64,000 nt of DNA from Phycisphaerales bacterium (GTDB lineage: Bacteria; Planctomycetota; Phycisphaerae; Phycisphaerales; UBA1924), in the NCBI GenBank assembly GCA_036261855.1, contig DATAKA010000120.1:35893-99892 (forward strand), written 5' to 3'. Every line of letters starts with the position of its first letter. Positions within the stretch are counted from its first letter, which is position 1. A program made the position numbers and the translations under genes. Positions 33,859-55,430 of this stretch are shown in pieces. Under the pieces are notes generated by a model, which was not told where the DNA came from, did no database searches, and saw only the letters and a list, made by a program, of their open reading frames with translations.

Positions 33859-34056
33859 CTAGATGCACGGCCCGCCGCCGAACACCGAAAGGAACGACGC
33901 GATGTCCTGCGTGTCCGGGAAGAGCGTGTCGTTGTTGAAGTCGATGCTGTCGCAGTGGGCGGTGGGGCACGCAGCGCCGGCGAACACACCGAGGAAGTCG
34001 CTGATGTCGCCCGTATCAGGGAAGAGCGAGTCGTTGTTGAAGTCGATGTCCGTGCA
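33859..34056 (-). repeat. Dockerin-like 3' cassette, copy 1
   Basis: Encodes CTDIDFNNDSLFPDTGDISDFLGVFAGAACPTAHCDSIDFNNDTLFPDTQDIASFLSVFGGGPCI. Confidence 0.85.
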
Positions 34057-35364
34057 CAGGCCTTCGCACCGATCCGGGATGGAGTTGCTGTTGGTGTCCG
34101 TCGTCCAGCCCTGGGAAATCTGGCACGCATCCGATACACCGTCACCATCACAGTCGGTGGGGGTGGCCTCCACCAGCTTGTAGAGACCGTTGTCCGCGAT
34201 GTGCACGCAGTACAGCTCGCCGTCCAGTCCTTCGCCGAACGCGGTGGGGCGGAAGTCGCCCGTTTCCACGCGCCGGTCGACGAAGTCCTCGACCTGGCCC
34301 GTCGCCGACCGCCGAACGGAGTAGATCCCCGAAGCACCGTCCGCGAAGATGTACGTGCCCCGCAGGCACGGCATCGCGCTGCCGCGGTACACGTAGCCGC
34401 CGCACACATACCGGAAGCCTGCAACCTCCTGCGACCCGATGGGCAAGGAGCCACCAAAGCCAAAGTCCAGCAGCGGCGGCAGGTACGGCTGCAGGGGCAG
34501 GCACGACACGAGCTGGTAATTGCCCTCCTTGCAGGGCCACCCCAGGTTCCACGCGCCGGTGCCCGCCGGGATCATCGAGATCTCTTCCCGGAATTCTGAG
34601 CCCACATCACCGATCCACAGGTCGCCGGTCTCGCGGTCGAAGGACCCGCGCCAGGGGTTGCGGAACCCCGACGCCCAGATTTCGTCCTCGCCACTCACGC
34701 CCACGTACGGGTTGTTCGGTGGGATGGCGTAGTTCTTCTGCGCATCCGCCGGAAAGCCATCGTCGTCCGCCGTCGCGGGTGCGTCGTCGGGTCCGTCCAC
34801 GTCCAGCCGCAGGATCTTGCTGCGGAGGATGTTCAGGTTCTGCCCGTTCAGCATCGTGGTGTTGTCGCCGATGCCCATGTAGAGGTAACCATCGGGCCCG
34901 AACGCGCAGAACCCGCCGTTGTGGAAGGTGCCCGCGCCGTCCATCACCAGGATGTCGACGAGTGGCCCCTCCGACACGAGTGGGTTGGCGGCGCTGCGGC
35001 GGCCGCGGGCCAGCACGTTCTGACCCGTGTTGCGGATGAAGTACACGTAAAAGTACCCGTTGGATTCATAGTCCGGGTGGAACGCGATGGAGTAGAGCCC
35101 CTGCTCGTTCATCGTCGCGACGTTGGGCACAAACTGGAAGTAGGTGGGCAGCACCGTCCTCGCGATCAGGTCCACCACGCGGATGTCGCCACCCTTGCCG
35201 ACGGACATCAGGTGGTTCGGGTCACCAGGGATCGCAAAGACACCGATCGGCTGCCACAGGCCGGTGGTGACGATCGGCTCGCGACGCAACGTGGTCTGTG
35301 CGCATGCACCGGCACCAATACCGGCAACCGCGGCGAGCGCGACAAGAAGAGAGTGATTCCGCAC
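33859..35364 (-). CDS. Secreted PQQ-dependent sugar dehydrogenase-like beta-propeller with a C-terminal tandem dockerin-like module
   Basis: GLYSIAFHPDYESNGYFYVYF and HNGGFCAFGPDGYLYMGIGDN are typical of soluble glucose/sorbosone dehydrogenases. The GTG start at 35364 has GGAGG 8 nt upstream, followed by a signal peptide. The protein ends in 2 x (C.IDFNND.LFPDT.DI..FL.VF.G..C). Confidence 0.8.
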   Translation of the reverse strand: MRNHSLLVALAAVAGIGAGACAQTTLRREPIVTTGLWQPIGVFAIPGDPNHLMSVGKGGDIRVVDLIARTVLPTYFQFVPNVATMNEQGLYSIAFHPDYESNGYFYVYFIRNTGQNVLARGRRSAANPLVSEGPLVDILVMDGAGTFHNGGFCAFGPDGYLYMGIGDNTTMLNGQNLNILRSKILRLDVDGPDDAPATADDDGFPADAQKNYAIPPNNPYVGVSGEDEIWASGFRNPWRGSFDRETGDLWIGDVGSEFREEISMIPAGTGAWNLGWPCKEGNYQLVSCLPLQPYLPPLLDFGFGGSLPIGSQEVAGFRYVCGGYVYRGSAMPCLRGTYIFADGASGIYSVRRSATGQVEDFVDRRVETGDFRPTAFGEGLDGELYCVHIADNGLYKLVEATPTDCDGDGVSDACQISQGWTTDTNSNSIPDRCEGLCTDIDFNNDSLFPDTGDISDFLGVFAGAACPTAHCDSIDFNNDTLFPDTQDIASFLSVFGGGPCI

Positions 35365-35441
35365 GGCTTGGACCTCCGCAACACAAGAGGGGACGCAGAA
35401 AGAGTTTACCACACGTGTCAAGCGGTGAGAGGGCCCGGCGA

Positions 35442-35645
35442 TCAGATCAGGCACGGTCCGCCCGAGAACACACTGATCAACGCGTTGATGTCCAGTGTGT
35501 CCGGGAACAACCCGTCGTTGTTGAAGTCGATGTCCCCGCAGTTGGGGTCGTTGGTGCACGGCCCGCCGGAGAAGACACTGAGGAAGTCATTAATATCCGC
35601 AGTGTCAGGGAAGAGGCCGTCCGCGTTGAAGTCGATGGCGTCGCA
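35442..35645 (-). repeat. Dockerin-like 3' cassette, copy 2
   Basis: Encodes CDAIDFNADGLFPDTADINDFLSVFSGGPCTNDPNCGDIDFNNDGLFPDTLDINALISVFSGGPCLI. Confidence 0.85.
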
Positions 35646-36986
35646 GGTGGGGCCTGTGGGAATGGCGACGCGCAGGAGCGAGGCCCGGTTGCCGGTCGTG
35701 TTGCCCGTGTTCGTGGGGTTGGTTTTGAGGGAAGGGGCGAAGTAGAAGTACCCGTCGTCCAGCAGCGTGCACCGGTCGCGCAGCGTGCCGATGAACAGGT
35801 CCGCGGGCGTGTTGGGGTTGTCGTCGATATCAACCGGGTCGCTCTCGCGCACCACCACAACCTGACCGTTCGCGACGATGACGGAGTTCCGCAGGCCGTC
35901 CGCGAGGTTCGAGGTGCCGAGCACGACATAGCTGCCGGCGTTGTTCCCCTTGAAGTCGATGAACGAGCCCCACAGCTCCGTGCTGCCCGGGAAAATCGGC
36001 TGCCCGGTCTGTGCGATGACGGCCCCGTTGCGGATGATCCAGCCTGTGCCGTCCTGGTTCGTGCCGCGGAGGAACCAGTCGCCGTTCGATTCCATCCACG
36101 GATCGGCGATGGTGCTGACAGCGCTGGTGAATGCGGTGCCGGGCAGCGCAGACCCCTCCTGCGCGACAACGACCCCGCTGACCACGGCGATGCGGTCGAT
36201 CGAGGTGTCGGAGGCGAGTTCGCCCGTGCAGATGGAGCTCGTGCCCGCCGCGTTCCAGCGCAGTGTTCCCGTGTCGATGTCCAGCCACGGCGCCTGGGGG
36301 CCCGACTGGCCCGTCGGTGCCGTCGCGGCGTCCATCACCCGCGCCACAAGCGTTGCTGTGCCCGGTGTCGAGATGCGGAAGATGGCCTCAAGGCCGCCGA
36401 GGTCGTTCGGCGCCATGTTGCTCGCGAGGAACCCCATCGAGCCGTCGGCCGCGACTTCTACCCCGCTGAACGAGACCGTGTTCGCTGTTCCGAACCCCCA
36501 GAAGTCGATGAACGCGGGAACGGTCGGGTGATCCTCACTGCGGGCGAACGTGGTGAAACCGCCGGATGAGCTGCGCACGACTCGGTCACTCAGGGTCGTG
36601 GTTGGCAGTGCGCGGTACGCGAGGGACCATTGCCCAACATCGTTGAAGCGGGGCTCGGGCAGGCTTGTGGAGAGGTTGACGACTTCTCCATTCTCGGTGG
36701 GCGTGACGCTCTCCTGGGCGATGAGCGTGCCGGCCAGGCCCTGGCCCTGCACCAGCACCTGGTCCGTGTTGACATCGCCGCTGTTGGTCGTGATCACCAC
36801 GTTCCACTGGTTGGTGGTGGGGGAGCGGTGCACGCGCCCGAAGTTGCTGTTCAGAACACCGGGGAGCCCCGGCGTGCCCGCCTTGGCGGAGGCTGCACCG
36901 TGATCCTGGCTGCACAGCACCACCTGAATCTGCGCGGACGCGCTGGACGCAAGGAAGACGGCAACGGGAAGCATCGCGTACTTCAT
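35442..36986 (-). CDS. Secreted repeat (propeller-like) protein with a C-terminal tandem dockerin-like module
   Basis: Signal peptide MKYAMLPVAVFLASSASAQ, recurrent N/D-x-x-G-x-hydrophobic blade-like motifs (NDVGQWSL, ADGSMGFLAS, ESNGDWFL, NNAGSYVVLG), and the C-terminal module. Confidence 0.7.
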   Translation of the reverse strand: MKYAMLPVAVFLASSASAQIQVVLCSQDHGAASAKAGTPGLPGVLNSNFGRVHRSPTTNQWNVVITTNSGDVNTDQVLVQGQGLAGTLIAQESVTPTENGEVVNLSTSLPEPRFNDVGQWSLAYRALPTTTLSDRVVRSSSGGFTTFARSEDHPTVPAFIDFWGFGTANTVSFSGVEVAADGSMGFLASNMAPNDLGGLEAIFRISTPGTATLVARVMDAATAPTGQSGPQAPWLDIDTGTLRWNAAGTSSICTGELASDTSIDRIAVVSGVVVAQEGSALPGTAFTSAVSTIADPWMESNGDWFLRGTNQDGTGWIIRNGAVIAQTGQPIFPGSTELWGSFIDFKGNNAGSYVVLGTSNLADGLRNSVIVANGQVVVVRESDPVDIDDNPNTPADLFIGTLRDRCTLLDDGYFYFAPSLKTNPTNTGNTTGNRASLLRVAIPTGPTCDAIDFNADGLFPDTADINDFLSVFSGGPCTNDPNCGDIDFNNDGLFPDTLDINALISVFSGGPCLI

Positions 36987-37021
36987 CAAGAACTCCAAAC
37001 AGCCCACAGAGTGAGGAAAAT

Positions 37022-37051
37022 CACGCCCGGCCGCGTCGGCGGGCGGGCGTG
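37022..37051 (-). terminator. Candidate intrinsic terminator after the 37082 gene
   Basis: CACGCCC...GGGCGTG outer stem with an inner GCCG-cgt-CGGC stem. On the minus-strand transcript it is followed by AUUUUCCU. Confidence 0.45.
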
Positions 37052-37081
37052 TGGAAAGGCGGGGAGGCGGGTGCGCCAGGT

Positions 37082-37279
37082 TCAGATGCAGGGGCCGCCG
37101 CTGAACACGCTCAGCAGGCTGTCAATATCCAGCGTGTCCGGGAAGAGGCCGTCGTTGTTGAAGTCGATGTCGCCGCAGGTGCCGGTGCTGCAGGGACCGC
37201 CGGAGAAGACGCTGAGGAAGTCGTCGATATCCGCGGTGTCGGGGAACAGCCCGTCGCCGTTGAAGTCGATCGCGTCGCA
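37082..37279 (-). repeat. Dockerin-like 3' cassette, copy 3
   Basis: Encodes CDAIDFNGDGLFPDTADIDDFLSVFSGGPCSTGTCGDIDFNNDGLFPDTLDIDSLLSVFSGGPCI. Confidence 0.85.
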
Positions 37280-38497
37280 GGAGGCGCCCGGTGTCCCGCC
37301 GACGCGGATGATCGCTTCACCCAGCGCAGCGCCCCCGATGTCGGAGATGTCAACGTTGACGTAGACGCTGCCGTCCTCCGGGATGTCCAGGCCCGGAGCA
37401 ATCGTCGGGCTGGCGTTGAAGTCGGTCACGACGTAGTCCGCGGTGTTGTCACCGTTTACGTCGATGGATGCGCCGGTCTCGAGGAGCACCACGGCCGCGC
37501 CAAAGTTGTTGAGCGGGGCGTAGATCAGCGCCTCGCTCGAGCCGCCGGTGTCGGCGATGAACGCCACGTTGCCCGCGTTGTTGATGCTGACCGCGTCGAT
37601 CACGCCGGTGTATGTCTTGCCGGCGATGGTGCCGCCCTCCGCCAGCAGGATGCCCGAGGGGCCGGCGACGAAGCCGTCCACGCTCGTCGCGGCGTTGGTG
37701 TCGCCGCTGAAGATGTACTGGCCCGACTCGTTCACGCCGACGTTGTTGAAGTTCTGCCAGAGCGAACCATCGCCCGCCGCACTGCCCTCGCGCGCGGCGA
37801 TGGTGGTGCCGTCCACTACAACGGTGACGTCGGTCGCCGTCGCCGCGCCCAGGTTCACAATGTTGATGAAGTGCGCGGCGCTATCCGACACGTCGTACGC
37901 GAAGTTGATCCCCTGCGCGGTGATGGCTTCGCCGCTCACGATGTGCCCGCCCGCGAAGATCGGCACGGTCGCCGCCGGGTTGCTCGGGGTCGCGTTCTTG
38001 TAGAACACGCGCGTCGTGGTTGCACCGCCCACGGTGTTGCCGTACCCGCCGACCCACACCGCCGTGCCGTTGGCGGTCATGCGGGGACGGCTGTTGAACG
38101 TGCTGAAGAAGCCGGGGAATCCCGGCGCGGCGTCGCCGTCCACGAGCAGCACGCCGTTGGAGGTATACACCGCGTCACCGCCGTTCACCGACGGGGAGTA
38201 GTTGAAGTCGAGCATGTTGGAAATGCCCATGGTGGTCTCCGCGCCCGTGACACCAACCACCGACCCGCTGTTGAAGACCACGCCGCCGCCCGCGAAGATC
38301 GAGCGCGTCGTGTCGCTCATGTTGGCGACGAAGCCCACCTGGTTGAGGCCGTTGACGTACGGATCACCAAGGTCGCTGATCGAGCTGTCGCCGAGCTGGT
38401 CGCCGTTCTTCGCGACCACCTGGGCCTGGTACAACTGAGCCGAAGCTCCCGCTGCGAAGGCGGACAGTGCGATGACGGTGCTGACTGCTGAACGCAT
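37082..38497 (-). CDS. Secreted NxxGxxAF-type repeat protein with a C-terminal tandem dockerin-like module
   Basis: Signal peptide MRSAVSTVIALSAFAAGASAQ, repeats such as LNQVGFVAN, TANGTAVWVG, VNESGQYIFSG and NNAGNVAFIAD, and the C-terminal module. Confidence 0.7.
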   Translation of the reverse strand: MRSAVSTVIALSAFAAGASAQLYQAQVVAKNGDQLGDSSISDLGDPYVNGLNQVGFVANMSDTTRSIFAGGGVVFNSGSVVGVTGAETTMGISNMLDFNYSPSVNGGDAVYTSNGVLLVDGDAAPGFPGFFSTFNSRPRMTANGTAVWVGGYGNTVGGATTTRVFYKNATPSNPAATVPIFAGGHIVSGEAITAQGINFAYDVSDSAAHFINIVNLGAATATDVTVVVDGTTIAAREGSAAGDGSLWQNFNNVGVNESGQYIFSGDTNAATSVDGFVAGPSGILLAEGGTIAGKTYTGVIDAVSINNAGNVAFIADTGGSSEALIYAPLNNFGAAVVLLETGASIDVNGDNTADYVVTDFNASPTIAPGLDIPEDGSVYVNVDISDIGGAALGEAIIRVGGTPGASCDAIDFNGDGLFPDTADIDDFLSVFSGGPCSTGTCGDIDFNNDGLFPDTLDIDSLLSVFSGGPCI

Positions 38498-38696
38498 GGC
38501 AAAATCCCTCTCTACAGGCATCGTGGAAGCCGGAAAACCTGGTCCGCAACGCGGACCGAACCGGTGTGGGCAAAATCGTACACGTTGCCGGGGCGGCGTC
38601 GCCACCCCCAGCGTGTTTCCGTGCAATCTCATTCGCAGTTCGTTGATGGTGGTTGCCCGCCAACGCCCGAGAATCCTCACTCCCGGTCAAATGAAA

Positions 38697-38728
38697 GCCG
38701 GCCGAAGGCCACGGGGGCCTTCGCCGGC
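38697..38728 (-). terminator. Intrinsic terminator after the 38752 gene
   Basis: GCCGGCCGAAGGCC-acggg-GGCCTTCGCCGGC, with one bulge. On the minus-strand transcript it is followed by UUUCAUUU. Confidence 0.6.
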
Positions 38729-38751
38729 AAGGAAAGGGATCAGTCCGTTAC

Positions 38752-38952
38752 TCAGAGGCAGGGGCCGCCGCTGAACACGCTGAGCAGGCTGTCTATATCC
38801 TGGGTGTCGGGGAAGAGGCCGTCGTTGTTGAAGTCCACATCCCCGCAGTTGGGGTCGTTGCTGCAGGGGCCGCCGGAGAAGACGCTGAGGAAGTCGTCGA
38901 TGTCGGCGGTGTCAGGGAAGAGGCCGTCGTTGTTGAAGTCGATGGCGTCGCA
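38752..38952 (-). repeat. Dockerin-like 3' cassette, copy 4
   Basis: Encodes CDAIDFNNDGLFPDTADIDDFLSVFSGGPCSNDPNCGDVDFNNDGLFPDTQDIDSLLSVFSGGPCL. Confidence 0.85.
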
Positions 38953-40377
38953 CGCGGGCCCCGAGGGACCGGTGGTGCCGTTCGCGTTGATGTTCTGCGC
39001 CAGGATGTCCGCGGCGCCGCTGGCGCCGTCCGCCCACGCCGCGATGAGCATGTCAGACCCGGCGGTGTTGATGACCGCGAGCCGACCCTTGGTGGTTGCG
39101 CCCGTGGAAACACCGAGTGTGGCCGGTGCCCAGACCGCCGCACCGTCCTCGCTCGACAGACGCGTCGAATGGACCTCCATCGGGGAGTTGGTGCCGGTGT
39201 ACTGCAGCCACGTCACGATACTGTCGCCCGAGGGGGCTCCGTTGACGTTGATGAAGGATGCGTGGAATCCCGCGATCGGCAGCACCTCGCGTCCAGCCTC
39301 GGTCCACAGCCGGACACCCGCGCCGCTCAGTTTCTGGGCGCCGACGCCGAAGAGCGACTGGACCGCGTTACTCCGCTCGTACGCGACGGTGTAGGTGTCG
39401 CTCGTTGCGTCGTAGGCAACAGCGGACGACAGGCGGAACTCCGTTGCGGACGTGGTGGCGCTCGCCGCAAGGCCGTTGGCGGCAAAGCGCGCAACGCCCG
39501 AGCCCGAGTAGTGCTGCACCCACGCGTTCCGGTCCGCGCCCGTGTCATACCAAGACACCACCGCACCCCCCGCGCCGTCGCTCACCACTTGCGGAAAGTA
39601 CCCGTTCTGGATGCCACGGCCGGGAGTCGCGCTCGACGCGTACGCATCGACGGCGACGCCACCGTTCCACTGGGGCACGTCGGCACCGTCCCACTTCTGA
39701 ATTTTCAGGCCCTTGCGGCTGGTCACCATGTTGGTGCCCTCGGCGCGGATCCACAGCAGGATGAACTCACCGCCGCTGCCGGTAGAGAGCAGGTCTGAGG
39801 GCGATTGGGCACGGCCGGTTTCCGCCAGCGTCCACGTGCTGCCGACCACGCCCTCGGCGCTCACGCGCCGGAAGTTCAGGATGTTGGACTGCGCCCACAC
39901 CACCACGGCCGAGCCGTCGGTGAGCGCGCACACCCGCGGCCCCACGGCCCCCGCGGACCCCGCCATGAACACGCCCTCCACGCCCCACGGCATGGACCCA
40001 TCCGGATTGACCTTCTGGATCCAGATACCGCTGTTGTCGTACGCGACGAGCGCGGCACCGTCCGCATCAACGTCCATGTCGTAGACAAACGTCGCGGTGT
40101 TCGTGCGGCTGTTGATCGTCACGCCACCGGGCCCCAGCTGACGGTTGCCCGCCGCGTCCAGACGCTGCACGGCGTGCTTGTACCCGGAACCCGCACCATT
40201 GTCGGTGTACGAAATCCAGGCACCGCCATCAGGGGTTGGCTTGAGCACGGGTGTGCCCTGATCACCGCCGCCAACATAGACAGGCGTATTGACGGCGGGG
40301 TCAATCGTCCACTGACCCATGGCCGCGGACGCGGCCAGCGTGGAAGCAACGAGGAACACGGCGATCGGGGTGCGCAT
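38752..40377 (-). CDS. Secreted repeat protein of unknown function with a C-terminal tandem dockerin-like module
   Basis: Signal peptide MRTPIAVFLVASTLAASAAMGQ, a repetitive Gly/Ala/Val/Trp-rich body (propeller-like), and the C-terminal module. Confidence 0.7.
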   Translation of the reverse strand: MRTPIAVFLVASTLAASAAMGQWTIDPAVNTPVYVGGGDQGTPVLKPTPDGGAWISYTDNGAGSGYKHAVQRLDAAGNRQLGPGGVTINSRTNTATFVYDMDVDADGAALVAYDNSGIWIQKVNPDGSMPWGVEGVFMAGSAGAVGPRVCALTDGSAVVVWAQSNILNFRRVSAEGVVGSTWTLAETGRAQSPSDLLSTGSGGEFILLWIRAEGTNMVTSRKGLKIQKWDGADVPQWNGGVAVDAYASSATPGRGIQNGYFPQVVSDGAGGAVVSWYDTGADRNAWVQHYSGSGVARFAANGLAASATTSATEFRLSSAVAYDATSDTYTVAYERSNAVQSLFGVGAQKLSGAGVRLWTEAGREVLPIAGFHASFINVNGAPSGDSIVTWLQYTGTNSPMEVHSTRLSSEDGAAVWAPATLGVSTGATTKGRLAVINTAGSDMLIAAWADGASGAADILAQNINANGTTGPSGPACDAIDFNNDGLFPDTADIDDFLSVFSGGPCSNDPNCGDVDFNNDGLFPDTQDIDSLLSVFSGGPCL

Positions 40378-40399
40378 GTGAAGTCCTTTGTGGTATCGA

Positions 40400-40417
40400 T
40401 GTGTAATAATTTACACA
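40400..40417. promoter_or_regulatory. AT-rich inverted repeat (operator-like or -10 region) upstream of the 38752-40377 gene
   Basis: TGTGTAA-taat-TTACACA has perfect 7-bp arms. It lies 23-40 nt upstream of the ATG at 40377, in the most AT-rich spot of the region. Confidence 0.3.
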
Positions 40418-40499
40418 ACCACTCGCCGCGCGGTTCCATCAATTGCACCGAATCGGCGCAAAGATCGTCCGCGTTCAATCGGCCACCCAAAAACGTGGA

Positions 40500-40703
40500 C
40501 TACCCAATACAGCTGCCTCCGCTGAACACGCTTAGGAGGGCATCAATATCAAGCGTGTCCGGGAAAAGCCCATCGTTATTGAAGTCAATATCCCCACAAT
40601 TAGGGGAGTTAGTGCACGGGCCACCGCTGAAGACGCTCAGGAAGTCGTCGATGTCAAGCGTGTCCGGGAAGAGGCCGTCGTTGTTGAAGTCAATGGAGTC
40701 ACA
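40500..40703 (-). repeat. Dockerin-like 3' cassette, copy 5
   Basis: Encodes CDSIDFNNDGLFPDTLDIDDFLSVFSGGPCTNSPNCGDIDFNNDGLFPDTLDIDALLSVFSGGSCIG. Confidence 0.85.
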
Positions 40704-41579
40704 GATCGGGCCCGAAGTGAGTGTGAGGGCTCCGATGAACTGGGGGGTAATACCGCCGGACAAGATAACGACCGGACCGTCGGTTGAGCCCGGAACGAAC
40801 GACATCACGGCGGTGCCTTCCGTGTACATCATCGCACCGTTGCCGAGCGGGGCGATGCCCCGCGGGCCGGTGCTGACCGGGTAGTACGCCACCTGGTTGC
40901 CGGCCGCGTCGTAGCGGTAGATGCCTGCGGGCGCGGTGAAACCGGTTGCCCAGACTTCCTGGGCACCCCCCGGCCCGGTGTTCAGCACGATCAACTGCTC
41001 CGGGAAGTCGATGCCGGAGGCGCCGTCGCTGGCGTGGAACACGCTCACGAAGTTGCCCAGCGGGTCATAAATATTGATGTCGTCGCCGGCGATATCGGCG
41101 ACGAGCAACTGCCCGTTGAACTCGGTGCAGTCGAAGGGGTCCGGCGCGGCGAAGAAGCCCTGGTGGGTTCCGTCGGTGGAGTACATGACCACAGCGTCGC
41201 CCGGGCCTGCGCCGGCATCGCTGTTGGACACGTACACGGTGTTCCCTATCTGGCCCATGCCGCGGATGTTGTTCATGTTGCCGGTGACGGTCGCGATGTG
41301 CTGGGGGGTCAGTGACGCGGTAAATCGGACGACAATGTCACTGACCTGGTCCGTGACCCAGATTTCATTGCCTACCTGCTGAACGTCTTTGGGTGTGGTG
41401 AAGTCAAAGGTGGTGCCGCCCGCGTCGAGGATGAAGTCGAGGTTCACGGGCGATCCATCGGACGCATTGAAGAGCATGATCCGGTCCGCTGTTGAGTCGG
41501 GGATCATGAGGTACTGGGCGTGGACGGTGGTGCCGAGGGCACCGAACAGGCTTGCGGCAACGAGACAACGGTTGATCAT
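40500..41579 (-). CDS. Secreted beta-propeller (NHL/SMP-30-like) protein with a C-terminal tandem dockerin-like module
   Basis: Signal peptide MINRCLVAASLFGALGTTVHAQ, repeated blade-like segments (IWVTDQVSDIVVRF, VYVSNSD..., LLVADIAGDDINIYD), and the C-terminal module. Confidence 0.7.
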   Translation of the reverse strand: MINRCLVAASLFGALGTTVHAQYLMIPDSTADRIMLFNASDGSPVNLDFILDAGGTTFDFTTPKDVQQVGNEIWVTDQVSDIVVRFTASLTPQHIATVTGNMNNIRGMGQIGNTVYVSNSDAGAGPGDAVVMYSTDGTHQGFFAAPDPFDCTEFNGQLLVADIAGDDINIYDPLGNFVSVFHASDGASGIDFPEQLIVLNTGPGGAQEVWATGFTAPAGIYRYDAAGNQVAYYPVSTGPRGIAPLGNGAMMYTEGTAVMSFVPGSTDGPVVILSGGITPQFIGALTLTSGPICDSIDFNNDGLFPDTLDIDDFLSVFSGGPCTNSPNCGDIDFNNDGLFPDTLDIDALLSVFSGGSCIG

Positions 41580-41676
41580 CTGAGAGCTCCCTGGGGACCG
41601 ACGGACGTCGGTCGGCTGGTGCACCCTACCCAAACACCACCGCAACTGCAAGCACAACTGGGGGAGGAAAGCTAAA

Positions 41677-41701
41677 AACCCCGGTGCGGGGCACCGGGGT
41701 T
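41677..41701 (-). terminator. Intrinsic terminator after the 41730 gene
   Basis: AACCCCGGTGC-ggg-GCACCGGGGTT is a perfect 11-bp stem. On the minus-strand transcript it is followed by UUUUAGC. Confidence 0.65.
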
Positions 41702-41729
41702 CTCCAAAGGAACGGTTGTGATTACTCTC

Positions 41730-41927
41730 TTAGAGGCACGCGCCGCCGCTGAAGACGCTCAGAAGGCTGTCGATGTCGAGGGTGTCTGGGAAGAGCCCGT
41801 CGTTGTTGAAGTCAATGTCGCCGCAGGTGCCGGTGCTGCAGACGCCTCCTGAGAACACGCTCAGGAAGTCGTCGATGTCGGCGGTGTCGGGGAAGAGGCC
41901 GTCACCGTTGTAGTCGATGGCGTCGCA
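41730..41927 (-). repeat. Dockerin-like 3' cassette, copy 6
   Basis: Encodes CDAIDYNGDGLFPDTADIDDFLSVFSGGVCSTGTCGDIDFNNDGLFPDTLDIDSLLSVFSGGACL. Confidence 0.85.
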
Positions 41928-42695
41928 GGAGGGGCCGACGACAATGCAGCCCATGTTTTCGGATCCCGGGGTGGTCAGGTAGGCGGGGTCCAGCTGCTGA
42001 CCCAGGGCCGGGAACCAGGCCTGCTCGACGGGGTCGGAGGTGAAGGGGCCGGGGATCGTGCCCAGCAGGTCCATGGACAGGACGGCACCGCAGGTGCGGA
42101 GGAAGGTGTCCGCCGTGAATCCGTCGGGCTCGGGGAGGACGTTGTCGGTGATGTCCAAGCCGCCAACCTGGGACGCGTACTGGAAGTGCGTGGGGCGGTT
42201 GTTGCCGTCTTTCATGCCAAGGGCATCGATGACGGTCGCCCACGGCGTGGCGTCAAGGACGCCATCGTTGTTGGTGTCGAGGTCCTGCCCCACGGCTCCG
42301 GTGAAGCCGCTGACGATCAGGAAGGTGTTGGAGCCATTCTCGATGTCGGGGCTGATGTCCTGCACGAACACGCTGGTCGCGGGGTCGGGTCCGCCGGGCA
42401 GGACGTTGGCCGCGTCGCGCCAGAGGAACAGCGAGTTGGTGCCGGTCACCTTTCCGTCGAGGCTCAGGGCCTGATCAATGATGCCGGTGACGCAGCCCGC
42501 GTCACAGTCACCCTCGATGATGAGCATGGTGAGGCCCGTCATGTCGAAGTTGGGCGCGGTGGACTTGAGCTCGATGTACTCGTTCGAGTTGTCCGGGCTG
42601 CCCGGCGGGTTGATCATCACCTCGTTGAACTGGACCTGGGCGCCTGCCGCGGACGCGAGCAGGGCGACCACCGAAATCACACACATCTTCTTCAT
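41730..42695 (-). CDS. Secreted lamin-tail-domain (LTD) protein with a C-terminal tandem dockerin-like module
   Basis: Signal peptide MKKMCVISVVALLASAAGAQ, the LTD-like start QFNEVMINPPGSPDNSNEYIELKS, and the C-terminal module. Confidence 0.75.
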   Translation of the reverse strand: MKKMCVISVVALLASAAGAQVQFNEVMINPPGSPDNSNEYIELKSTAPNFDMTGLTMLIIEGDCDAGCVTGIIDQALSLDGKVTGTNSLFLWRDAANVLPGGPDPATSVFVQDISPDIENGSNTFLIVSGFTGAVGQDLDTNNDGVLDATPWATVIDALGMKDGNNRPTHFQYASQVGGLDITDNVLPEPDGFTADTFLRTCGAVLSMDLLGTIPGPFTSDPVEQAWFPALGQQLDPAYLTTPGSENMGCIVVGPSCDAIDYNGDGLFPDTADIDDFLSVFSGGVCSTGTCGDIDFNNDGLFPDTLDIDSLLSVFSGGACL

Positions 42696-42745: not shown

Positions 42746-43744
42746 CTAGAAGTTGAGGCCGTTGCGTGTCAGCCACCCGCCGAACACCTTGCCCTCAAGC
42801 TCGTCGTACAGCAGAACGTTCTGGATACTCCCGTAGGTTCCGGCGCTGCCGCTCCACTCACCGTCGCGCTTGCCGCTGTCGGCAAACTGCTCCACGTGCG
42901 CGTCCGCGAACAGCATGTTGCCGTAGAACCGGTCGTGGTCGTGCTCGGCGTCGGCGATCTTCGGGCCTTTGCCGTGGACGGGTCCGAAGTCCTCGAAGCG
43001 CTGGCGGCCGGTGCCCGCGCCCTGGATGCCGGGCGGGTTCACCATGGTGGTGGGGCCGTCGGAGAGCACCTTGGCGCCGACGAGCTGACCGCCCCGGTAC
43101 AGCACCATGTCTCCCTGCTCCGGGTTGGCGATCACGGTGGCGTCGCCGATCATGACGACGCGCGAGGGGGTGGTGGTCGCACCGACGGACTTGTCCGCGA
43201 GCGGCCCGCGGAGCTTGGTGCGGTTCTTAAAGTCGTTGTATTGGCGGTGGTCTTTGACGTCGGTGTGGGCCATCTGCCAGCTCTGGCAGTAGTTGGTGTT
43301 CAGCCCCTTGGTGATGAACTCGTCCACGTCCGCGAGCGTGAACGTCTGGTACGCCTGCGAGTTGAGGCGGTTCATGTTGAGCGACTGGCTCGCTTGTGCG
43401 GGGCTGCTGGGGCAGAGCATCTTGCCCGGGATGCCGTAGCCGCCGTTGAGCACGTCGGCGACCCACCCTGTTGTGTCGATGCGGCCGTACCCCTCCATGA
43501 GCGAGTTGTCCCAGGAGCCCGAGGAGTAGAACCCGCGGTGGGAGGCGCTGTAGGACTCGAAGGAGATACCAAACTGCCGGAGGTTCGACTTGCACTTGAC
43601 CGTCCGGCCCGTCTCCCGCACGGACGCGACACTCGGGAGGAGCAGGCCGAGGAGCAGGGCGATCACGGCGATGACGACGAGCAGCTCGATGAGGGTGAAC
43701 GCGCGCGGGCGTGGCCCCGTTGTCTCAGCGAAGCTGTGCGGCAT
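42746..43744 (-). CDS. DUF1559-type pseudopilin (prepilin-type N-terminal cleavage/methylation domain protein)
   Basis: [26 protein letters not shown]-terminal motif, and a C-terminal [12 protein letters not shown] block resembling the DUF1559 end motif. The 50-nt gap to the downstream LTD gene suggests co-transcription. Confidence 0.8.
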
Positions 43745-43900: not shown

Positions 43901-44080
43901 GGTTTGTGCGGTGCGCTGGTTGACGCGGGCGGTCGATCCGCGAGTTGCTTTTCGGACGCGGGTGGTTTGTGCAGTGCGCAACGCGCGCGCCGTCCGTGGA
44001 GTGCGGGTCCGATTGCGCCGATACGGAGATGTCCGTCGATCTCCAGAAACAACCGGAAGAGGTGTTGCGTGCGCACAAAC
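43901..44080. promoter_or_regulatory. Three copies of a GTTTGTGCG-type motif in the divergent control region
   Basis: GGTTTGTGCGGTGCGC (43901-43916) and GGTTTGTGCAGTGCGC (43964-43979) are direct copies 63 nt apart. GCGTGCGCACAAAC (44067-44080) is the inverted copy. GACGCGGG is also duplicated (43922 and 43955). Confidence 0.35.
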
Positions 44081-44101
44081 AGGCGGTCCAGTGGCGGCTG
44101 G

Positions 44102-45949
44102 GTGTCCAGCTGGGTCGTGGGTCGCGGGAAAGGCCCACAGTTCGCGGTCGGCGCTTCGCTGACCGGGCTGCTTGCGCTCACGCTCTGCGCCGGGGGTGCG
44201 TGGACCTTTTACACCCACGCGCGCGCCTCGCGCGAGGGCGAAGTGCGCAGCCTGTCTGTCACCGCGACCACCATGACTCACGCCGCGGAGCAGATGCTCG
44301 CCAGCGGCGACGCCACGGGACTGCAACACCTTGTTTCTGAGTGCGCGATCGATGCGGGTCTGGACGGAGCCACGCTCTCGCTCGACGGCGTGGGCGTGGT
44401 CGCGGACAAGGCGATCGGCAACGTCGCGGTGCGGGACATCCCGGCCTCGTGGGGCGTGGCGGGCGCAGCATCGCCGGGCAATGACACACGGCTCGCCAAC
44501 AACACCATCACACTGACACGGCGTGTGCAGGTGGCGGGGAAGGGCGATGCAACGCTGACCCTCATTCGCAAGTACACCCCACCGGTGCTGGGTGACTTCA
44601 ACGCCCAGGCGGGCCTGGGCGGGATCGCCGCGGGCGTCGCGGCGGTGGGGTACCTGGTGTTCCGCTCGCTGCGGTCGCGCATGCGGGGCCTGGGGGCGAT
44701 CAGCGAGGCGCTGCACCAGGCGTCGGCGTTCGCGCCCGGCGAGCTCCCGGCGGCGGCGATGCGCATCAGCGACGAACTGGGCGACGATGCGATCATGTGG
44801 AACCGGCTGATTGCGGACCGTGATACCTCGGTGGCCCGGCGCGACATCGAGGCGGCGGCGATGCGTCAGCAGATGCCTGGTGGTGCGGGCGGCGACTCCG
44901 CGGCCGCGTTTGACGCGTTGTGGATGGGGCTGATCGTGCTGGACGCCGACGGCAAGGTGCGGGCGATCAACGGCGCGGCGGCGGTCTTCCTGAAGCACCC
45001 CCGGCAGGAGATCGTCTCGCGCGATCTCTCCGCGTACGTGTCGGACAAGGGTGTCATGGAGGTCGTGGACGGCGTCGTCAAGGGGCGCACGAAGCAGCGC
45101 ACGGTGGTTGAAACGACGATCTCAGATGAGTCCAAGGGCTCGGAGCAGACGATTCTTCGGATGACCATCCGGCCGATGCGCAAGGAGGACGGGGCGGCGG
45201 CGCTGCTCGTGGTCGAGGACATCACCCAGCAGCGCGTGGCGGACGACTCCCGCAACGCGTTCGTCGCGCAGGCAACGCACGAGCTGCGGACACCGCTTAC
45301 CAACATCCGCCTGTACCTCGAGCAGCTGGTCGAAGAGGGCGACAGCGACCCGCTGGTCAAGGCGCGGTGCATCAACGCCATCAGCCAGCAGGCCCGGCGC
45401 CTGGAGCGCACCGTGGGGGACATGCTGAGTGTGAGCGAGATCGAGGCGGGCACCTTCCGCCTGCACACGGACGACGTCCGCCTCGAGACACTCTTTGAAG
45501 AGCTCCGGGAAGACTTCGGCGCGTCCGCGGCGGACAAGGAGATCGAGTTCACCGTGGAGCTGCCGCCCAAGCTTCCGCAGCTGAACGCCGACCGGGACAA
45601 GATCGCGATGGCGCTGCACAACCTGGTGGGCAACGCGATGAAGTACACGCCCACCGGCGGGAAGGTGATGGTCCGCGTGAGCGACGACGGGCAGGCGCTC
45701 CGCGTTGATGTTACGGACAACGGGATCGGCATCAGCGAGGAGGAGCAGGAGCTCATCTTCGACAAGTTCTACCGCAGCAAGGACAAGCGCATCGGCAGCA
45801 TCACCGGCAGTGGTATCGGCCTCGCGCTGGCGCGGCAGGTGGTCCGCCTGCATGGCGGGGACATCCGCGTGCAGAGCGCAATCGACAAGGGCAGCACGTT
45901 CACGCTCACGGTGCCGTTGCACCGCGGGGCGGTGAAGATCGCGGCGTAA
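44102..45949 (+). CDS. Membrane sensor histidine kinase (TM - HAMP-like - PAS - HisKA - HATPase)
   Basis: ATHELRTPLTNIRLYLE H-box, NLVGNAMKYT, DNGIGIS, GSGIGLALARQVV. The start is uncertain. The ORF is open from 43904 (ATG), but that extension covers the repeat-bearing intergenic region. The GTG at 44102 leaves a short basic N-terminus before the first TM segment. Confidence 0.8.
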   Translation: MSSWVVGRGKGPQFAVGASLTGLLALTLCAGGAWTFYTHARASREGEVRSLSVTATTMTHAAEQMLASGDATGLQHLVSECAIDAGLDGATLSLDGVGVVADKAIGNVAVRDIPASWGVAGAASPGNDTRLANNTITLTRRVQVAGKGDATLTLIRKYTPPVLGDFNAQAGLGGIAAGVAAVGYLVFRSLRSRMRGLGAISEALHQASAFAPGELPAAAMRISDELGDDAIMWNRLIADRDTSVARRDIEAAAMRQQMPGGAGGDSAAAFDALWMGLIVLDADGKVRAINGAAAVFLKHPRQEIVSRDLSAYVSDKGVMEVVDGVVKGRTKQRTVVETTISDESKGSEQTILRMTIRPMRKEDGAAALLVVEDITQQRVADDSRNAFVAQATHELRTPLTNIRLYLEQLVEEGDSDPLVKARCINAISQQARRLERTVGDMLSVSEIEAGTFRLHTDDVRLETLFEELREDFGASAADKEIEFTVELPPKLPQLNADRDKIAMALHNLVGNAMKYTPTGGKVMVRVSDDGQALRVDVTDNGIGISEEEQELIFDKFYRSKDKRIGSITGSGIGLALARQVVRLHGGDIRVQSAIDKGSTFTLTVPLHRGAVKIAA

Positions 45950-45985
45950 TCGGCAGGGCTCAGGCGTACCAGAAAGGAGGAACCC

Positions 45986-46324
45986 ATGGATGTCCAGGAA
46001 CAGCGGCACGGAGCGGTGACGGTCATCAAGCCCGTGGGGCCACTCCTCCAGGATGACGCAACCAAGTTCCGCCAGCGCCTGGGCGACGTGATGACGCGGA
46101 GCCTCGGGCGGTTTGTGCTGGACGCTTCGGGCGTCGCGTACGTGGATAGTCAGGGGCTCGAGGTGCTTGTGCAGGCCGCGGAGCAGCTCGCGGAGGGCGG
46201 GCGCGCGATGCGGCTGTCGGGCGCGACCGAGACGCTGCGCGAGGTGCTGGACCTGACGGGCGTTTCCGACCGCTTTGAGCACTACGCGGACGTCAACACC
46301 GCCGTGAGGAGCTTCCTCTCGTGA
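45986..46324 (+). CDS. STAS-domain protein (anti-sigma-factor-antagonist fold)
   Basis: 112 aa, with VTVIKPVGPL...FVLDASGVAYVDSQGLEVLV...LRLSGATETLREVLDLTGV. The SpoIIAA-type DSxG serine is present (Ser55, nt 46148-46150). Confidence 0.85.
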   Translation: MDVQEQRHGAVTVIKPVGPLLQDDATKFRQRLGDVMTRSLGRFVLDASGVAYVDSQGLEVLVQAAEQLAEGGRAMRLSGATETLREVLDLTGVSDRFEHYADVNTAVRSFLS

Positions 46325-48210
46325 ACCTGCCGTTCATCCATCGCGCGGGCGATCCCATCCCGCCGCCCGGCGGCCAGGGGGAAGCCGCGCCCAGGGCGGT
46401 GCAGCCCAATGTTGTGCCCGTGCCGGCAGCACCGGGCGGCAGCGCGGTGTCCAACCCCGCATTGCAGCAGCGCCGCATCCGCGTGGGTGACGTGCTGCTG
46501 CAGGACGGCGTCATCAGCAGGGAGCAGCTCGAGTCGGCGTTGGCGGAGCAGCGGGCAACGAGCAAGCTGCTGGGTGAGACGCTGGTCAGCCAGGGCACGA
46601 TCAGCCCGGCCACCCTGGTGCGGTCGCTGGCGAAGGTGCTGGGTGTGCCCGGGTGCACGCTGCGCCATGGCCTGATCGACCCGGCGATGCTCAAGCTGAT
46701 CGGCGCCGAGGAGGCCGAACGCCTCAAGTGCCTCCCGATGTTCAAGGTCGGCGAGACGCTCACGGTCGCGATGGCGGAACCGCAGAGCCTGCCGACCATT
46801 GATCGTCTGCGCCAACTGACGGGCCTCAAGGTGCGCCCGGTGCTGGCGCTGGAGGCGAACGTCAAGGAGTACATCCAGAAGTACTCGCGCGGCAACGTCG
46901 ACATCGACGCGTTCCTGACGAGCCTGACGGAGCAGGACGTCGAGGTGGTCGAGCGGGAAGCGGTGGACGAAGGTCCTTCGACCGACCTCGACAAGCTCGT
47001 CGCCGGCAACCCGATCGTCAACCTGATCAACATCGCGCTGCTCACGGCGGTCAAGGACCGGGCGAGCGACATCCACATCGAGCCCGACAAGCGGGGCACG
47101 CGCGTGCGGTACCGTGTGGACGGCGTGCTGCGCGACCTGATGAAGCCGCCGGTGGGCATGCACGCGGCCATCGTGTCGCGCGTCAAGGTCATCGGGAAGA
47201 TGGATATCGCCGAGAAGCGGCTGCCGCAGGAGGGCCGCGTGCGGATCGTCGCGGAGGGCCGCGAGATCGACCTGCGCGTGTCGAGCATGCCGACGCTGCT
47301 GGGCGAGAAGGTCGTGGTGCGCGTGCTGGACAAGGCGAACCTCAAGGTGCGGTTGGAGGATTTGGGTTTCCGGAAGGAGCCCCTTGAGACCTTCACGCGG
47401 TTCCTGAACCAGAGCCACGGCATGGCGCTCGTGACCGGGCCCACGGGCAGCGGCAAGACGACCACGCTGTACTCCGCGCTCGACCTGCTGCGCAGCCCCG
47501 AGGTGAACATCGTGACGGTCGAGGACCCGGTCGAGTACCAGCTCGAGATGATCAACCAGATCCAGGTGCACGAGCAGATCGGCCTTTCGTTCGCGCGGGC
47601 CCTGCGGAGCATCCTGCGCCAGGACCCCGACATCATCATGGTGGGTGAGATTCGTGACGAGGCGACGGCGCGCGTGGCGGTGCAGGCAGCGCTCACCGGA
47701 CACCTGGTGCTGGCAACCCTGCACACGAACGATGCGCCCGGGGCGGTCGCGCGCCTCGTGGACATGGGCATCGAGACGTACCTGCTGAGCGGTGCGCTGA
47801 ACGGCGCTGTGGCGCAGCGGCTGGCCCGCACCATCTGCCCGTCGTGCGCGACCAAGTACTTCCCCGCGGAGCACGTGCTGAGGGACGCGGGCATTCCGCA
47901 CGAAGTTGGCCGCGCGTTCCGCAAGGGCGCGGGCTGCCAGCGGTGCCACGACAGCGGCTTCCAGGGCCGCCAGGGCGTGTACGAGGTCTTTGAGGTGACA
48001 CCGGACCTGCGTCGGATGATCCACCACGGCCGGCCGACGCACGAGCTCCGCGCGAAGATGAAGGACGCGGGGTGCCTCACGCTCCGCGAGGAGGGTGTGC
48101 AGCTCGCGCTTGACGGCCGGACGAGCCTGGAGGAGATTCTGCGCGTCACCCAGAACGACGACGAACTGCCCGCCGACAGCTCTCCGCTCGCCGCGAAGGA
48201 GGCCGCATGA
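46321..48210 (+). CDS. gspE: GspE/PilB-family secretion ATPase with an MshEN-like N-terminal domain
   Basis: Walker A GPTGSGKTT, Asp/His boxes, and a tetracysteine motif (CPSC...CQRC). The N-terminal RVGDVLLQDGVISREQLESALAEQ and LLGETLVSQGTISPATLVRSLA match the MshEN/T2SSE_N repeat. The GTG start overlaps the STAS stop codon (GTGA). Confidence 0.92.
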   Translation: MNLPFIHRAGDPIPPPGGQGEAAPRAVQPNVVPVPAAPGGSAVSNPALQQRRIRVGDVLLQDGVISREQLESALAEQRATSKLLGETLVSQGTISPATLVRSLAKVLGVPGCTLRHGLIDPAMLKLIGAEEAERLKCLPMFKVGETLTVAMAEPQSLPTIDRLRQLTGLKVRPVLALEANVKEYIQKYSRGNVDIDAFLTSLTEQDVEVVEREAVDEGPSTDLDKLVAGNPIVNLINIALLTAVKDRASDIHIEPDKRGTRVRYRVDGVLRDLMKPPVGMHAAIVSRVKVIGKMDIAEKRLPQEGRVRIVAEGREIDLRVSSMPTLLGEKVVVRVLDKANLKVRLEDLGFRKEPLETFTRFLNQSHGMALVTGPTGSGKTTTLYSALDLLRSPEVNIVTVEDPVEYQLEMINQIQVHEQIGLSFARALRSILRQDPDIIMVGEIRDEATARVAVQAALTGHLVLATLHTNDAPGAVARLVDMGIETYLLSGALNGAVAQRLARTICPSCATKYFPAEHVLRDAGIPHEVGRAFRKGAGCQRCHDSGFQGRQGVYEVFEVTPDLRRMIHHGRPTHELRAKMKDAGCLTLREEGVQLALDGRTSLEEILRVTQNDDELPADSSPLAAKEAA

Positions 48211-49460
48211 AGATCGGCTACAGCGGCTTCGACAAGTCCGGCAAGCCCACGCGCGGCTTCGTGGACGCTCCCGATGCGCAGGAGGCGGTGGAGCTTCTGC
48301 GGCGGCAGGGCGTGTTCGTGGCGGAGGTCCACGCCGCGAGCCAGGCGCTCGCGGAGAGTGAAGAGTCCGGCGGTGGCGTGCAGGCGCAGCGCAGTGGCCT
48401 GTTCGGCAGCGGCTCGCGCGTCGAGAAAGTGTCGTCGATGGCGCGCCAGCTTGCGATTCTCATCACCACCGGCACGCCGGTGGTGGACGCCATCGCGTCC
48501 ATCGAGCGGCAAACGCCGCAGGGTGAATGGCGCGACACCGTGGCGGGTGTGCGGAGCAAGGTGGAAGAGGGCAAGTCGCTCGCCGAGGCGATGGCCGCGT
48601 ACCCGCGGTACTTTGACGCGGTGTGCCGCAGCCTGGTGGCCGCCGGCGAGACCGGCGGCAAGCTGGACGTGATGCTGGATCGGCTGGCGCGGCTGCTGCG
48701 TCAGCAGGTGAAGGTCCGGAAGCAGATCACCGGGGCGATGGTGTACCCGACGCTGCTCATGGGTGTCGCCGGCGCGGTGGTTGTGGTGATGATGACCTTT
48801 GTGCTGCCGCGGTTCGAGGGCCTGTTCAAGTCGATCGGCTCGGACTTGCCGCCGCTGACCAAGGTGCTCATGGCGTGCAGCCACTTCATGCGAGACTCGT
48901 GGATGTGGCTTGTGGGCGGGCTGTGTGTCGTGGTGACGGCGGGCGTGGTCTACTTCCGCAGCGAGGCGGGCAGGCTCGCGATCGACAAGGCCATGGTGCG
49001 GCTGCCGCAGGTGGGCAAGGTGACGCGGGCGTTCTCGATGGCGCGCATCGCGCGGGTCCTGGGCGTGCTGCTGGACGGCAAGGTGCCGCTGCTGGACGCC
49101 CTGGCGCTCACGCGATCATCGATGAAGAACTCGCTCTACCAGAGGCTCGTTGGGCGCGCCGAGGACGCGGTGATCCGTGGTGAGACGCTCAGCAGTGCGC
49201 TGGCGGACCCGACACTGATGTCCCCCGCGATGGTGGAGGCGGTGCGCAGCGGCGAGCGGTCCGGGCAGTTGGCGCCCGTGCTCACCGCCATCGCCGAGCA
49301 CATGGACGAGGACAACGAGGTGGCGATGAAGACGCTCACGGGGCTCATCGAGCCGGCGATCCTGCTGGTGCTCGGGCTGGTTGTGGGCAGCGTGGCCGTG
49401 GGCATGATGCTGCCGCTGTTTGATCTTGTGGCCTCCGGCACGAATGGGGGTGGGCATTGA
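48207..49460 (+). CDS. gspF: GspF/PilC-family platform protein
   Basis: Two T2SSF repeats with 3 TM segments. The ATGA overlaps the ATPase gene stop. Confidence 0.9.
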   Translation: MKIGYSGFDKSGKPTRGFVDAPDAQEAVELLRRQGVFVAEVHAASQALAESEESGGGVQAQRSGLFGSGSRVEKVSSMARQLAILITTGTPVVDAIASIERQTPQGEWRDTVAGVRSKVEEGKSLAEAMAAYPRYFDAVCRSLVAAGETGGKLDVMLDRLARLLRQQVKVRKQITGAMVYPTLLMGVAGAVVVVMMTFVLPRFEGLFKSIGSDLPPLTKVLMACSHFMRDSWMWLVGGLCVVVTAGVVYFRSEAGRLAIDKAMVRLPQVGKVTRAFSMARIARVLGVLLDGKVPLLDALALTRSSMKNSLYQRLVGRAEDAVIRGETLSSALADPTLMSPAMVEAVRSGERSGQLAPVLTAIAEHMDEDNEVAMKTLTGLIEPAILLVLGLVVGSVAVGMMLPLFDLVASGTNGGGH

Positions 49461-51821: not shown

Positions 51822-51862
51822 ATCGGGTTGACACCGGGACCGGCGTTCTGCCTAGTTGGTGC

Positions 51863-52435: not shown

Positions 52436-52620
52436 AAGTGAGGGTCCGAACCCGTACCCGGTGCAGGGAGGTTCCGTTTATTCCGGCCTAAAGGCAGGGG
52501 AATCCCGGCTGGACGCTGCGCCGCTCCCCGAAGTCGGCGATCGAGGCGGTCGATGTTTTCCTCATGCTCGCCCTGAAGGTCGGGCGATCAGCAACGTCCG
52601 GAAGCGTCACGGAGGAACTC

Positions 52621-53109: not shown

Positions 53110-53198
53110 GTTGACTTCTTCTGCATGAGCACCACGCCCGCGGACTCCGACGTCTGCGGGCGTTGTTCATCCCGGGTCTTCCCCACGGAGTTCCACGC

Positions 53199-53819: not shown

Positions 53820-53822
53820 GCA

Positions 53823-55429: not shown

Positions 55430-55430
55430 T

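Follow-up and report, generated by a model that had tools for sequence, protein, structure and literature searches.

A four-cysteine C-terminal module of exported Phycisphaerales proteins, related to GC-type dockerins and predicted to share the dockerin fold

In a 64,000-nucleotide stretch of a Phycisphaerales metagenome-assembled genome (MAG), contig DATAKA010000120.1 of assembly GCA_036261855.1 and hereafter the window, six co-directional minus-strand genes (g1–g6) adjoin each other at 33859-42695. Their products have unrelated bodies and share one C-terminal module, which, according to its structural model, is a small dockerin-fold domain with two loop-helix units. On the evidence of profile comparison it is a remote homologue of the domain that NCBI calls GC-type dockerin (NF041540.1), namely a lineage-specific four-cysteine derivative of the GC-type dockerin of Phycisphaerales. 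On balance, we favor the view that it is a Ca2+-dependent, disulfide-stapled docking domain, which tethers Sec-exported proteins to a common receptor in the cell envelope. In the following, we describe the module, its ancestry and its distribution, and weigh this proposal against three others.

The open reading frame listing and the translations give the following features, all on the minus strand (PQQ, pyrroloquinoline quinone).

33859-35364, minus: g1, 501 aa (HEX2838410.1); signal peptide, PQQ-dependent glucose/sorbosone dehydrogenase propeller, Cys-rich DxDxDG-like linker, tandem module
33862-34056, minus: tandem four-cysteine module of g1, 65 aa
35442-36986, minus: g2, 514 aa; signal peptide, body without family match, tandem module
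35445-35645, minus: tandem module of g2, 67 aa
37082-38497, minus: g3, 471 aa (HEX2838412.1); signal peptide, body without family match, tandem module
37085-37279, minus: tandem module of g3, 65 aa
38752-40377, minus: g4, 541 aa (HEX2838413.1); signal peptide, body without family match, tandem module
38755-38952, minus: tandem module of g4, 66 aa, the sequence modelled
40500-41579, minus: g5, 359 aa (HEX2838414.1); signal peptide, possible NHL-like propeller (sub-threshold match), tandem module
40503-40703, minus: tandem module of g5, 67 aa
41730-42695, minus: g6, 321 aa (HEX2838415.1); signal peptide, lamin-tail-like body (Pfam LTD, E 0.15), tandem module
41733-41927, minus: tandem module of g6, 65 aa
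63874-64000, minus: 3' end of a seventh gene at the window edge; end of repeat 1, linker, full repeat 2 (63880-63969), Leu, stop

A pattern scan of the window found 13 copies of the repeat, all of them within g1–g6 or the cut seventh gene. Five of the six products are exactly matched by GenBank proteins of one Phycisphaerales MAG (HEX2838410 and HEX2838412-HEX2838415), of which the first is named 'PQQ-dependent sugar dehydrogenase' and the remaining four 'hypothetical protein'; the orthologue of the sixth, g2, is 514 aa long in the close relative L001. Each product starts with a signal-peptide-like segment ending in A-Q, as judged by eye rather than with a predictor, and this ending is also the consensus among 73 module proteins of other genomes. 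Between g2 and g3, the strong BLASTP similarity is confined to the module (74% identity over 78 aa, E 1e-35), and the second alignment below E 1 (28% identity, E 1e-05) extends into the module too. The passengers of g1–g6, i.e. the bodies that precede the module, fall into six separate similarity clusters. Translation, BLASTP and clustering hence confirm the arrangement that an earlier reading of the letters (the original prediction) had described: six adjacent minus-strand genes and a seventh at the window edge, each with a signal peptide, an unrelated body and a common terminus. The labels which it had given to the passengers held up in part. The PQQ dehydrogenase of g1 carries the only significant Pfam domain among the six (PF07995 GSDH, E 4.8e-29), whereas the lamin tail and the NHL-like propeller are backed by no more than the marginal matches listed above, and the bodies of g2–g4 match no Pfam or NCBIfam family.

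The module follows the pattern C-x3-DFNxDxLFPDTxDIxxFLxVFxGGxC, a linker of 4-5 residues, a second copy, 1-2 further residues and the stop codon, and amounts to 65-67 aa in total. Its loop, D1-x-N3-x-D5-G6-x-x-P9-D10-T-x-D13, has 13 residues, with A, L or Q at position 12, so that the DxNxDGxxxxxD spacing that had been taken for a type I dockerin or EF-hand calcium loop is off by one. Relative to the GC type, the acidic ligand of position 12 has shifted to 13 and that of position 9 to 10. The module is strongly acidic, with invariant exposed hydrophobic residues in its loops. Across 326 sequences, its four cysteines are effectively invariant, as the original prediction had supposed from far fewer copies; the outer pair, C1 and C4, never varies, and 0-2 residues separate C4 from the end. 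Because the helices of dockerins are antiparallel and the GC-type relatives possess just two cysteines, the disulfides probably connect C1 with C4 and C2 with C3, by analogy as two symmetry-related staples instead of one bracket per repeat. The notion of individually Cys-bracketed repeats would accordingly be a wrong pairing.

With an alignment of 69 sequences, AlphaFold2 models the g4 module at a pLDDT (predicted local distance difference test) of 92.7 and a pTM (predicted template modelling score) of 0.77. In the model, the helices of the two loop-helix units span residues 15-25 and 50-60, and the linker forms a short helix of its own; an entering helix, as in the helix-loop-helix of EF-hands, is not present. 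In a Foldseek search against 350,542 PDB chains it obtained nine matches, and all nine are dockerins, with full-length TM (template modelling) scores of 0.50-0.65 and root-mean-square deviations of 2.2-3.8 A. An earlier model, built from 23 sequences and of moderate quality (pLDDT 72), had matched dockerins in five out of five cases. The claim of a dockerin-like tandem loop-helix terminus is thus supported by both the model and its exclusively dockerin matches, although the two 12-residue loops characteristic of type I dockerins are not found in it: there are two loop-helix units, but their loops have 13 residues.

Profile comparison also points to a specific relative. With hhalign, the module profile aligns to real GC-type dockerins with a probability of 95.6% (E 1.2e-8) over 56 columns, which span both repeats; the window type has one inserted residue in each of its loops (G-L-F-P-D-T-x-D versus G-V-V-D-F-F-D). 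These GC-type sequences were found with one probe; one of them is so named by NCBI, and many have precomputed matches to Pfam Dockerin_1 or EF-hand. The kinship that the original prediction had suggested is therefore borne out, and the NCBI family which it named does exist, as NF041540.1 ('dockerin_GC'), but the module proteins stand outside it and are named 'hypothetical protein'. This model, whose curated cut-off is 29 bits, matches neither the six full-length proteins (E<=0.01) nor the isolated modules or the sequences P0004, P0018 and P0019 (E<=10). It is functional, since two probe sequences composed after the GC type score 68.9 and 52.7 bits, and the lack of a score for window-type sequences means that the module is not a family member by NCBI's own test. 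Matches of the module to phage Ocr and IF-6 in Pfam, NCBIfam and PDB sequence searches were dismissed as noise.

The two types have much in common. Both are found within one phylum and class and sit at the very C-terminus of proteins exported by Sec, both are built of tandem loop-helix repeats with the first cysteine ahead of loop 1 and the last one at the end, and both take the same place, after an NG[IV]PDxCE linker, on homologous PQQ dehydrogenases. By contrast, the GC type has two cysteines (the first and the last) instead of four, its loop has 12 residues (VxDFFD) instead of 13 (LFPDTxD), and NCBI leaves proteins of the window type as 'hypothetical'. A GC-type dockerin with an extra cysteine pair in the linker between its repeats, encoded on a Planctomycetota fragment from a hydrothermal vent (P0200), looks like an intermediate between the two-cysteine and the four-cysteine forms. 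The four cysteines and the 13-residue loops are new, while the kind of domain, a little-described one, is already known; the module is therefore not categorically new. We found no paper that mentions 'GC-type dockerin', in line with the earlier statement that no binding partner or function has been reported for this family.

The relationship is mirrored by the exchange of C-terminal modules on homologous passengers. Of the C-termini of the 120 best homologues of the g1 dehydrogenase, 29 are of the four-cysteine type and 40 carry a GC-type-like module, and the remaining ones include further variants with terminal cysteines; the terminal module usually follows the NG[IV]PDxCE linker. Of the ends that we tested, all six of the GC type pass the NF041540 cut-off (37.6-53.8 bits), whereas none of the four of the four-cysteine type yields a match. 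In g1 itself, two short cysteine-containing DxDxDG-like loops (DCDGDGVSDAC and DTNSNSIPDRCE) lie directly upstream of the module, at 34057-34155 on the minus strand, and the second of these is conserved as NGNG[IV]PDECE ahead of the terminal module in most dehydrogenase homologues, whichever module type they carry.

A second exchange concerns the body of g6. This body is joined to the module in the window and in two related loci (L013:596-1585 and L021:5149-6204), but in paralogues at these same loci (L013:1649-2497 and L021:1785-2750) the module is replaced by a tail of [IV]PTPG, a hydrophobic stretch and RRxR. In both genomes, the module and tail forms share 40-45% identity over the whole body. 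When compared with models for PEP-CTERM/exosortase-dependent proteins, the [IV]PTPG tail matches their C-terminal ends below threshold. PEP-CTERM-like tails also occur on eight further genes of our sample, and nine such tails were counted among 605 sampled genes. As the g6 body is found with either ending, one and the same passenger can carry either the module or an envelope-anchoring tail of a known type. Together, the exchanges with the GC-type dockerin and with the PEP-CTERM-like tail lend indirect support to the idea that the module may serve in surface display.

The module family is large and greatly expanded in individual genomes. In a profile search of 1.84 billion representatives, 1,977 clusters (50% identity) passed E<=1e-3; 1,398 of these also passed E<=1e-10 and 148 passed E<=1e-30, and in 149 of the 150 best clusters the match ends at the protein end. 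All named members that we looked up are from Phycisphaerales, several of them from the window's own MAG. When one genome per GTDB species was scanned for the pattern, 354 sites were confirmed, the best 80 of which all stem from two Phycisphaerales MAGs. Finally, a hidden Markov model (HMM) of the module detected 190 distinct module genes in 942 kb of sampled DNA. The MAG STL-PLA7 has at least 100 module genes within approximately 14% of its 3.9 Mb genome, and a second MAG has at least 77. By a crude rule, 179 of the 190 genes have a signal-peptide-like start; all but a handful have two repeats, with one single-repeat case, and usually 0-2 residues, most often a single Leu, follow the last cysteine. 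Module genes often stand in co-directional runs of two to six.

The passengers of these genes are diverse and form 77 similarity clusters. In 73 representatives, Pfam recognizes beta-propellers (DUF5122/Rax2, lactonase-like, FG-GAP), Laminin_G_3, immunoglobulin (Ig), PKD, DUF11, CHRD and Spherulin4 domains, as well as enzymes such as di-haem cytochrome c peroxidase, M12B reprolysin-like peptidase, GH16 and PQQ dehydrogenase. There are also two mini-proteins without a passenger: P0004 (VHN77_15985, from the window's MAG), which has 111 aa and consists of a signal peptide, a partial third repeat and the tandem module, and a protein of 115 aa with a single repeat (L064:8501-8845). These could be free competitors, regulators or gene remnants.

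The likeness of the modules within a genome is maintained at the level of the peptide. The 13 repeats of the window have 79% amino-acid identity, and where they agree in a residue, they agree in its codon as well in 63% of cases, compared with 61% expected from codon usage alone. We therefore rejected gene conversion or recent duplication as the source of this likeness; synonymous sites are saturated, which implies purifying selection on the peptide of each copy. In 308 tandem modules, approximately 24 of the 30 positions per repeat are near-invariant and about six vary, and the two repeats show fixed differences at position 2 (D/G), position 20 (D/S-A) and position 21 (F/L). Between lineages, the loop motif on a single dehydrogenase family takes several forms: LFPDT, VFPED, LFPDN/D, FDPQD, a CC-containing form and the GC type. 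Such uniformity within genomes, combined with turnover between lineages, is what one would expect of a co-evolving recognition pair, as far as sequences can tell.

In the scenario that we favor, module-bearing proteins would be exported by Sec, upon which the module would fold with Ca2+ and become oxidized outside the cytoplasm. It would then dock its passenger, be it an enzyme, a propeller or a lectin- or Ig-like binder, non-covalently on a common receptor of the cell envelope and thereby provide the cell with a large modular set of tethered exoproteins. This resembles the role of type I dockerins (PF00404), with which the module shares its predicted fold, a duplicated calcium loop plus helix, as well as the usually C-terminal position on many different secreted enzymes and the pattern of uniformity within species and divergence between lineages. 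The number of clients per genome is likewise comparable to that of the largest cellulosome producers. Unlike type I dockerins, the module has an extra loop residue, four cysteines and no Pfam match; its passengers are mostly not plant-cell-wall enzymes, its host is a diderm planctomycete and no cohesin was found in the DNA that we searched.

In the literature, the idea closest to ours is that of the 'planctosome', put forward for freshwater Phycisphaerae (Nemodlikiaceae), which proposes a non-cellulosomal tethering of exoenzymes through cohesin-dockerin pairs, with an M12B peptidase and lamin-tail-domain proteins among the clients (PMC6461901). It is a proposal only and rests on canonical Pfam cohesin and dockerin matches in few proteins (PMC6461901). 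M12B and lamin-tail-like passengers occur here, too, but the module described here is unseen by Pfam and is found on more than 100 proteins per genome without a known cohesin.

Several observations weigh against the docking proposal. Isolated modules match neither Pfam Dockerin_1 (PF00404) nor EF-hand (PF00036/PF13202) at E<=10, and neither family is among the best 25 of the 36 Pfam families matched by the 73 diverse module proteins. The original prediction had suggested a profile-HMM check against dockerin and EF-hand models, and membership was found in none of NF041540, Dockerin_1 and EF-hand. The E-values of the Foldseek matches, 1.3-9.5, are not significant, the domain being short; the weight of that result lies in the exclusivity of the dockerin matches and not in the E-values. 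The acid of the canonical loop position 12 is displaced to 13, so that Ca2+ binding is not assured. More than 100 clients per cell would require a very abundant receptor, and in all 190 genes just 0-4 residues separate the module match from the stop codon, which would also fit a sorting signal.

The receptor search points in the same direction. Up to 10 kb away from the orthologous cluster, and among ten neighbours of the array in the window, no gene encodes a Pfam cohesin or another candidate receptor, in agreement with the original prediction, which had recognized no cohesin-like partner in the window. A crude clostridial cohesin HMM of low sensitivity remained without match in the 942 kb of related-genome DNA, and when the 441 non-module genes from 78 sources were clustered, no gene family recurred beside module genes. 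A linked receptor, sortase or transporter was rejected as a candidate on these grounds: only background kinases, ABC (ATP-binding cassette) ATPases and secretion ATPases recur there. A regex search of the sampled DNA detected no tandem of canonical 12-residue dockerin loops outside the module genes.

Some of these points suit an alternative in which the module would be a C-terminal domain for sorting or secretion. Once folded, it would be recognized by a dedicated machinery that takes the protein across the outer membrane or into it and perhaps removes the module, in analogy to the C-terminal domain of type IX secretion. Beyond the strictly terminal position and the missing cohesin, this reading can draw on the more than 100 unrelated cargoes per genome, on the interchange with a PEP-CTERM-like sorting tail and on a block resembling a type II secretion system (T2SS) or type IV pilus (T4P), which lies 3.5 kb from the array. 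PEP-CTERM/exosortase tails are also C-terminal on many unrelated exported proteins, but they consist of a short motif, a transmembrane helix and a basic cluster and are processed by an exosortase, whereas the module is an acidic, folded domain of about 66 aa without a membrane helix; the combination of PEP-like motif, transmembrane helix and basic cluster is absent from the six window proteins. The C-terminal domain of type IX secretion is a beta-sandwich, unlike the module, which is predicted to be helical, and the sorting-signal models of NCBIfam and Pfam, including that domain, do not match the C-termini. Furthermore, the fold and ancestry of the module are those of a protein-binding domain, and no gene for a processing enzyme or transporter recurs beside module genes.

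There is also one genuine N-terminal case: in P0176, the module directly follows a Sec-type signal peptide and precedes a body of 440 residues, which shows that the module is not an obligate C-terminal signal. Taking these points together, we regard a sorting domain as unlikely. The P0176 gene is located at L078:4001-5623 (Logan SRR25018358 contig 2717, 43.6 kb, 64% GC) and found in L079, too. It lies within a phage structural block, flanked by the gene of the major head protein (phrog_267) and by tail genes (phrog_446 / Tube, Phage_nozzle), with start and stop codons that overlap, and, judging by this neighborhood, looks like a (pro)phage-encoded exported protein that bears a host-type tag. 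A scan of IMG/VR revealed no other viral copy of the module.

It appears a little less probable still that the module binds directly, without a cohesin, to an envelope polymer, such as lipopolysaccharide, peptidoglycan or a capsular or sulfated polysaccharide; its calcium sites and conserved Leu-Phe-Pro loops would then make the contact. The undetected cohesin would agree with this, the very high number of clients would suit an abundant polymer, and the module is very acidic with invariant exposed loop hydrophobics. The PEP-CTERM system, with whose tail it is exchanged, is associated with exopolysaccharide loci. On the other hand, all structurally matched relatives bind proteins, and the lineage-wise turnover of the motif and its uniformity within genomes are more typical of protein-protein co-evolution.

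A partner-less domain, that is a Ca2+- and disulfide-dependent cap for folding, stability or solubility or a self-association domain, would fit the terminal position, the small size, the existence of free mini-proteins of signal peptide and module (P0004) and the possibility that calcium loops and cysteines act as a post-export folding switch, but it is very unlikely, as the near-invariance of some 24 of 30 positions in hundreds of paralogues with saturated synonymous sites exceeds the needs of a stability tag, the module can be replaced by a membrane or surface anchor tail, and its passengers are as diverse as β-propellers, lectin-like and Ig-like domains and enzymes.

The surroundings of the array offer some context. 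The gene order of the array is conserved in the close relative L001, whose syntenic locus we reached through its protein P0028, and largely conserved in two other species (L013 and L076). One further gene lies directly upstream of g6 in the same direction.

42746-43744, minus: prepilin-type N-methylation/DUF1559 protein (Pfam N_methyl, E 6.8e-07; SBP_bac_10, E 6.8e-05)

The adjacency of this gene to the g6 orthologue is kept in L001, L013 and L021. In the neighborhood of module genes in general, prepilin/DUF1559 genes show no enrichment (8 of 608 genes), and we treat this one as context of the array only. Further on, at 43904-56813, the window encodes a histidine kinase, a STAS-domain protein and the T2SS/T4P-like block mentioned above, which comprises GspE with MshEN, a GspF-like protein, PilO and at least two pseudopilins; this stretch begins 1.2-3.5 kb from the array. 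By its gene content, the block is a possible outer-membrane export route for module proteins. Terminator-like hairpins are located on the minus strand just 3' of the stop codons of g6 (41678-41692) and g4 (38699-38711), a hint that the array may comprise more than one transcription unit; the total number of hairpins in the region is not above the shuffled expectation. Rfam has no match in the window. At 1427-4405 on the minus strand, the window encodes a secreted Met-zincin (DUF4953, E 6.7e-71; DUF5117) with a signal peptide and without a docking module, which means that not every exoprotein of this genome uses the tag.

Taken further, the module and its GC-type relatives may be the address tag of an undescribed envelope-anchoring system of Phycisphaerae, with more than 100 exoproteins per cell (approximately 3% of genes) and a non-cohesin receptor (a polymer, a pilin-like fibre or a new fold) that co-evolves by lineage and can be exploited by phages. 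We consider this conceivable and put it forward tentatively.

In a planctomycete lineage that is widespread but uncultured, a very large part of the secretome bears the module, which neither Pfam nor NCBIfam recognizes. Because of this blindness, the proteins are annotated as hypothetical and their common logic stays hidden; a dedicated profile would label approximately 1,400-2,000 protein clusters at once. A small domain that is, as we propose, disulfide-stapled and calcium-dependent would have its appeal as an orthogonal part for protein assembly, too. If it is indeed a docking tag, these bacteria would possess a system of tethered exoproteins as large as the biggest cellulosomes, albeit for a different chemistry, and its receptor would be a concrete target to search for.

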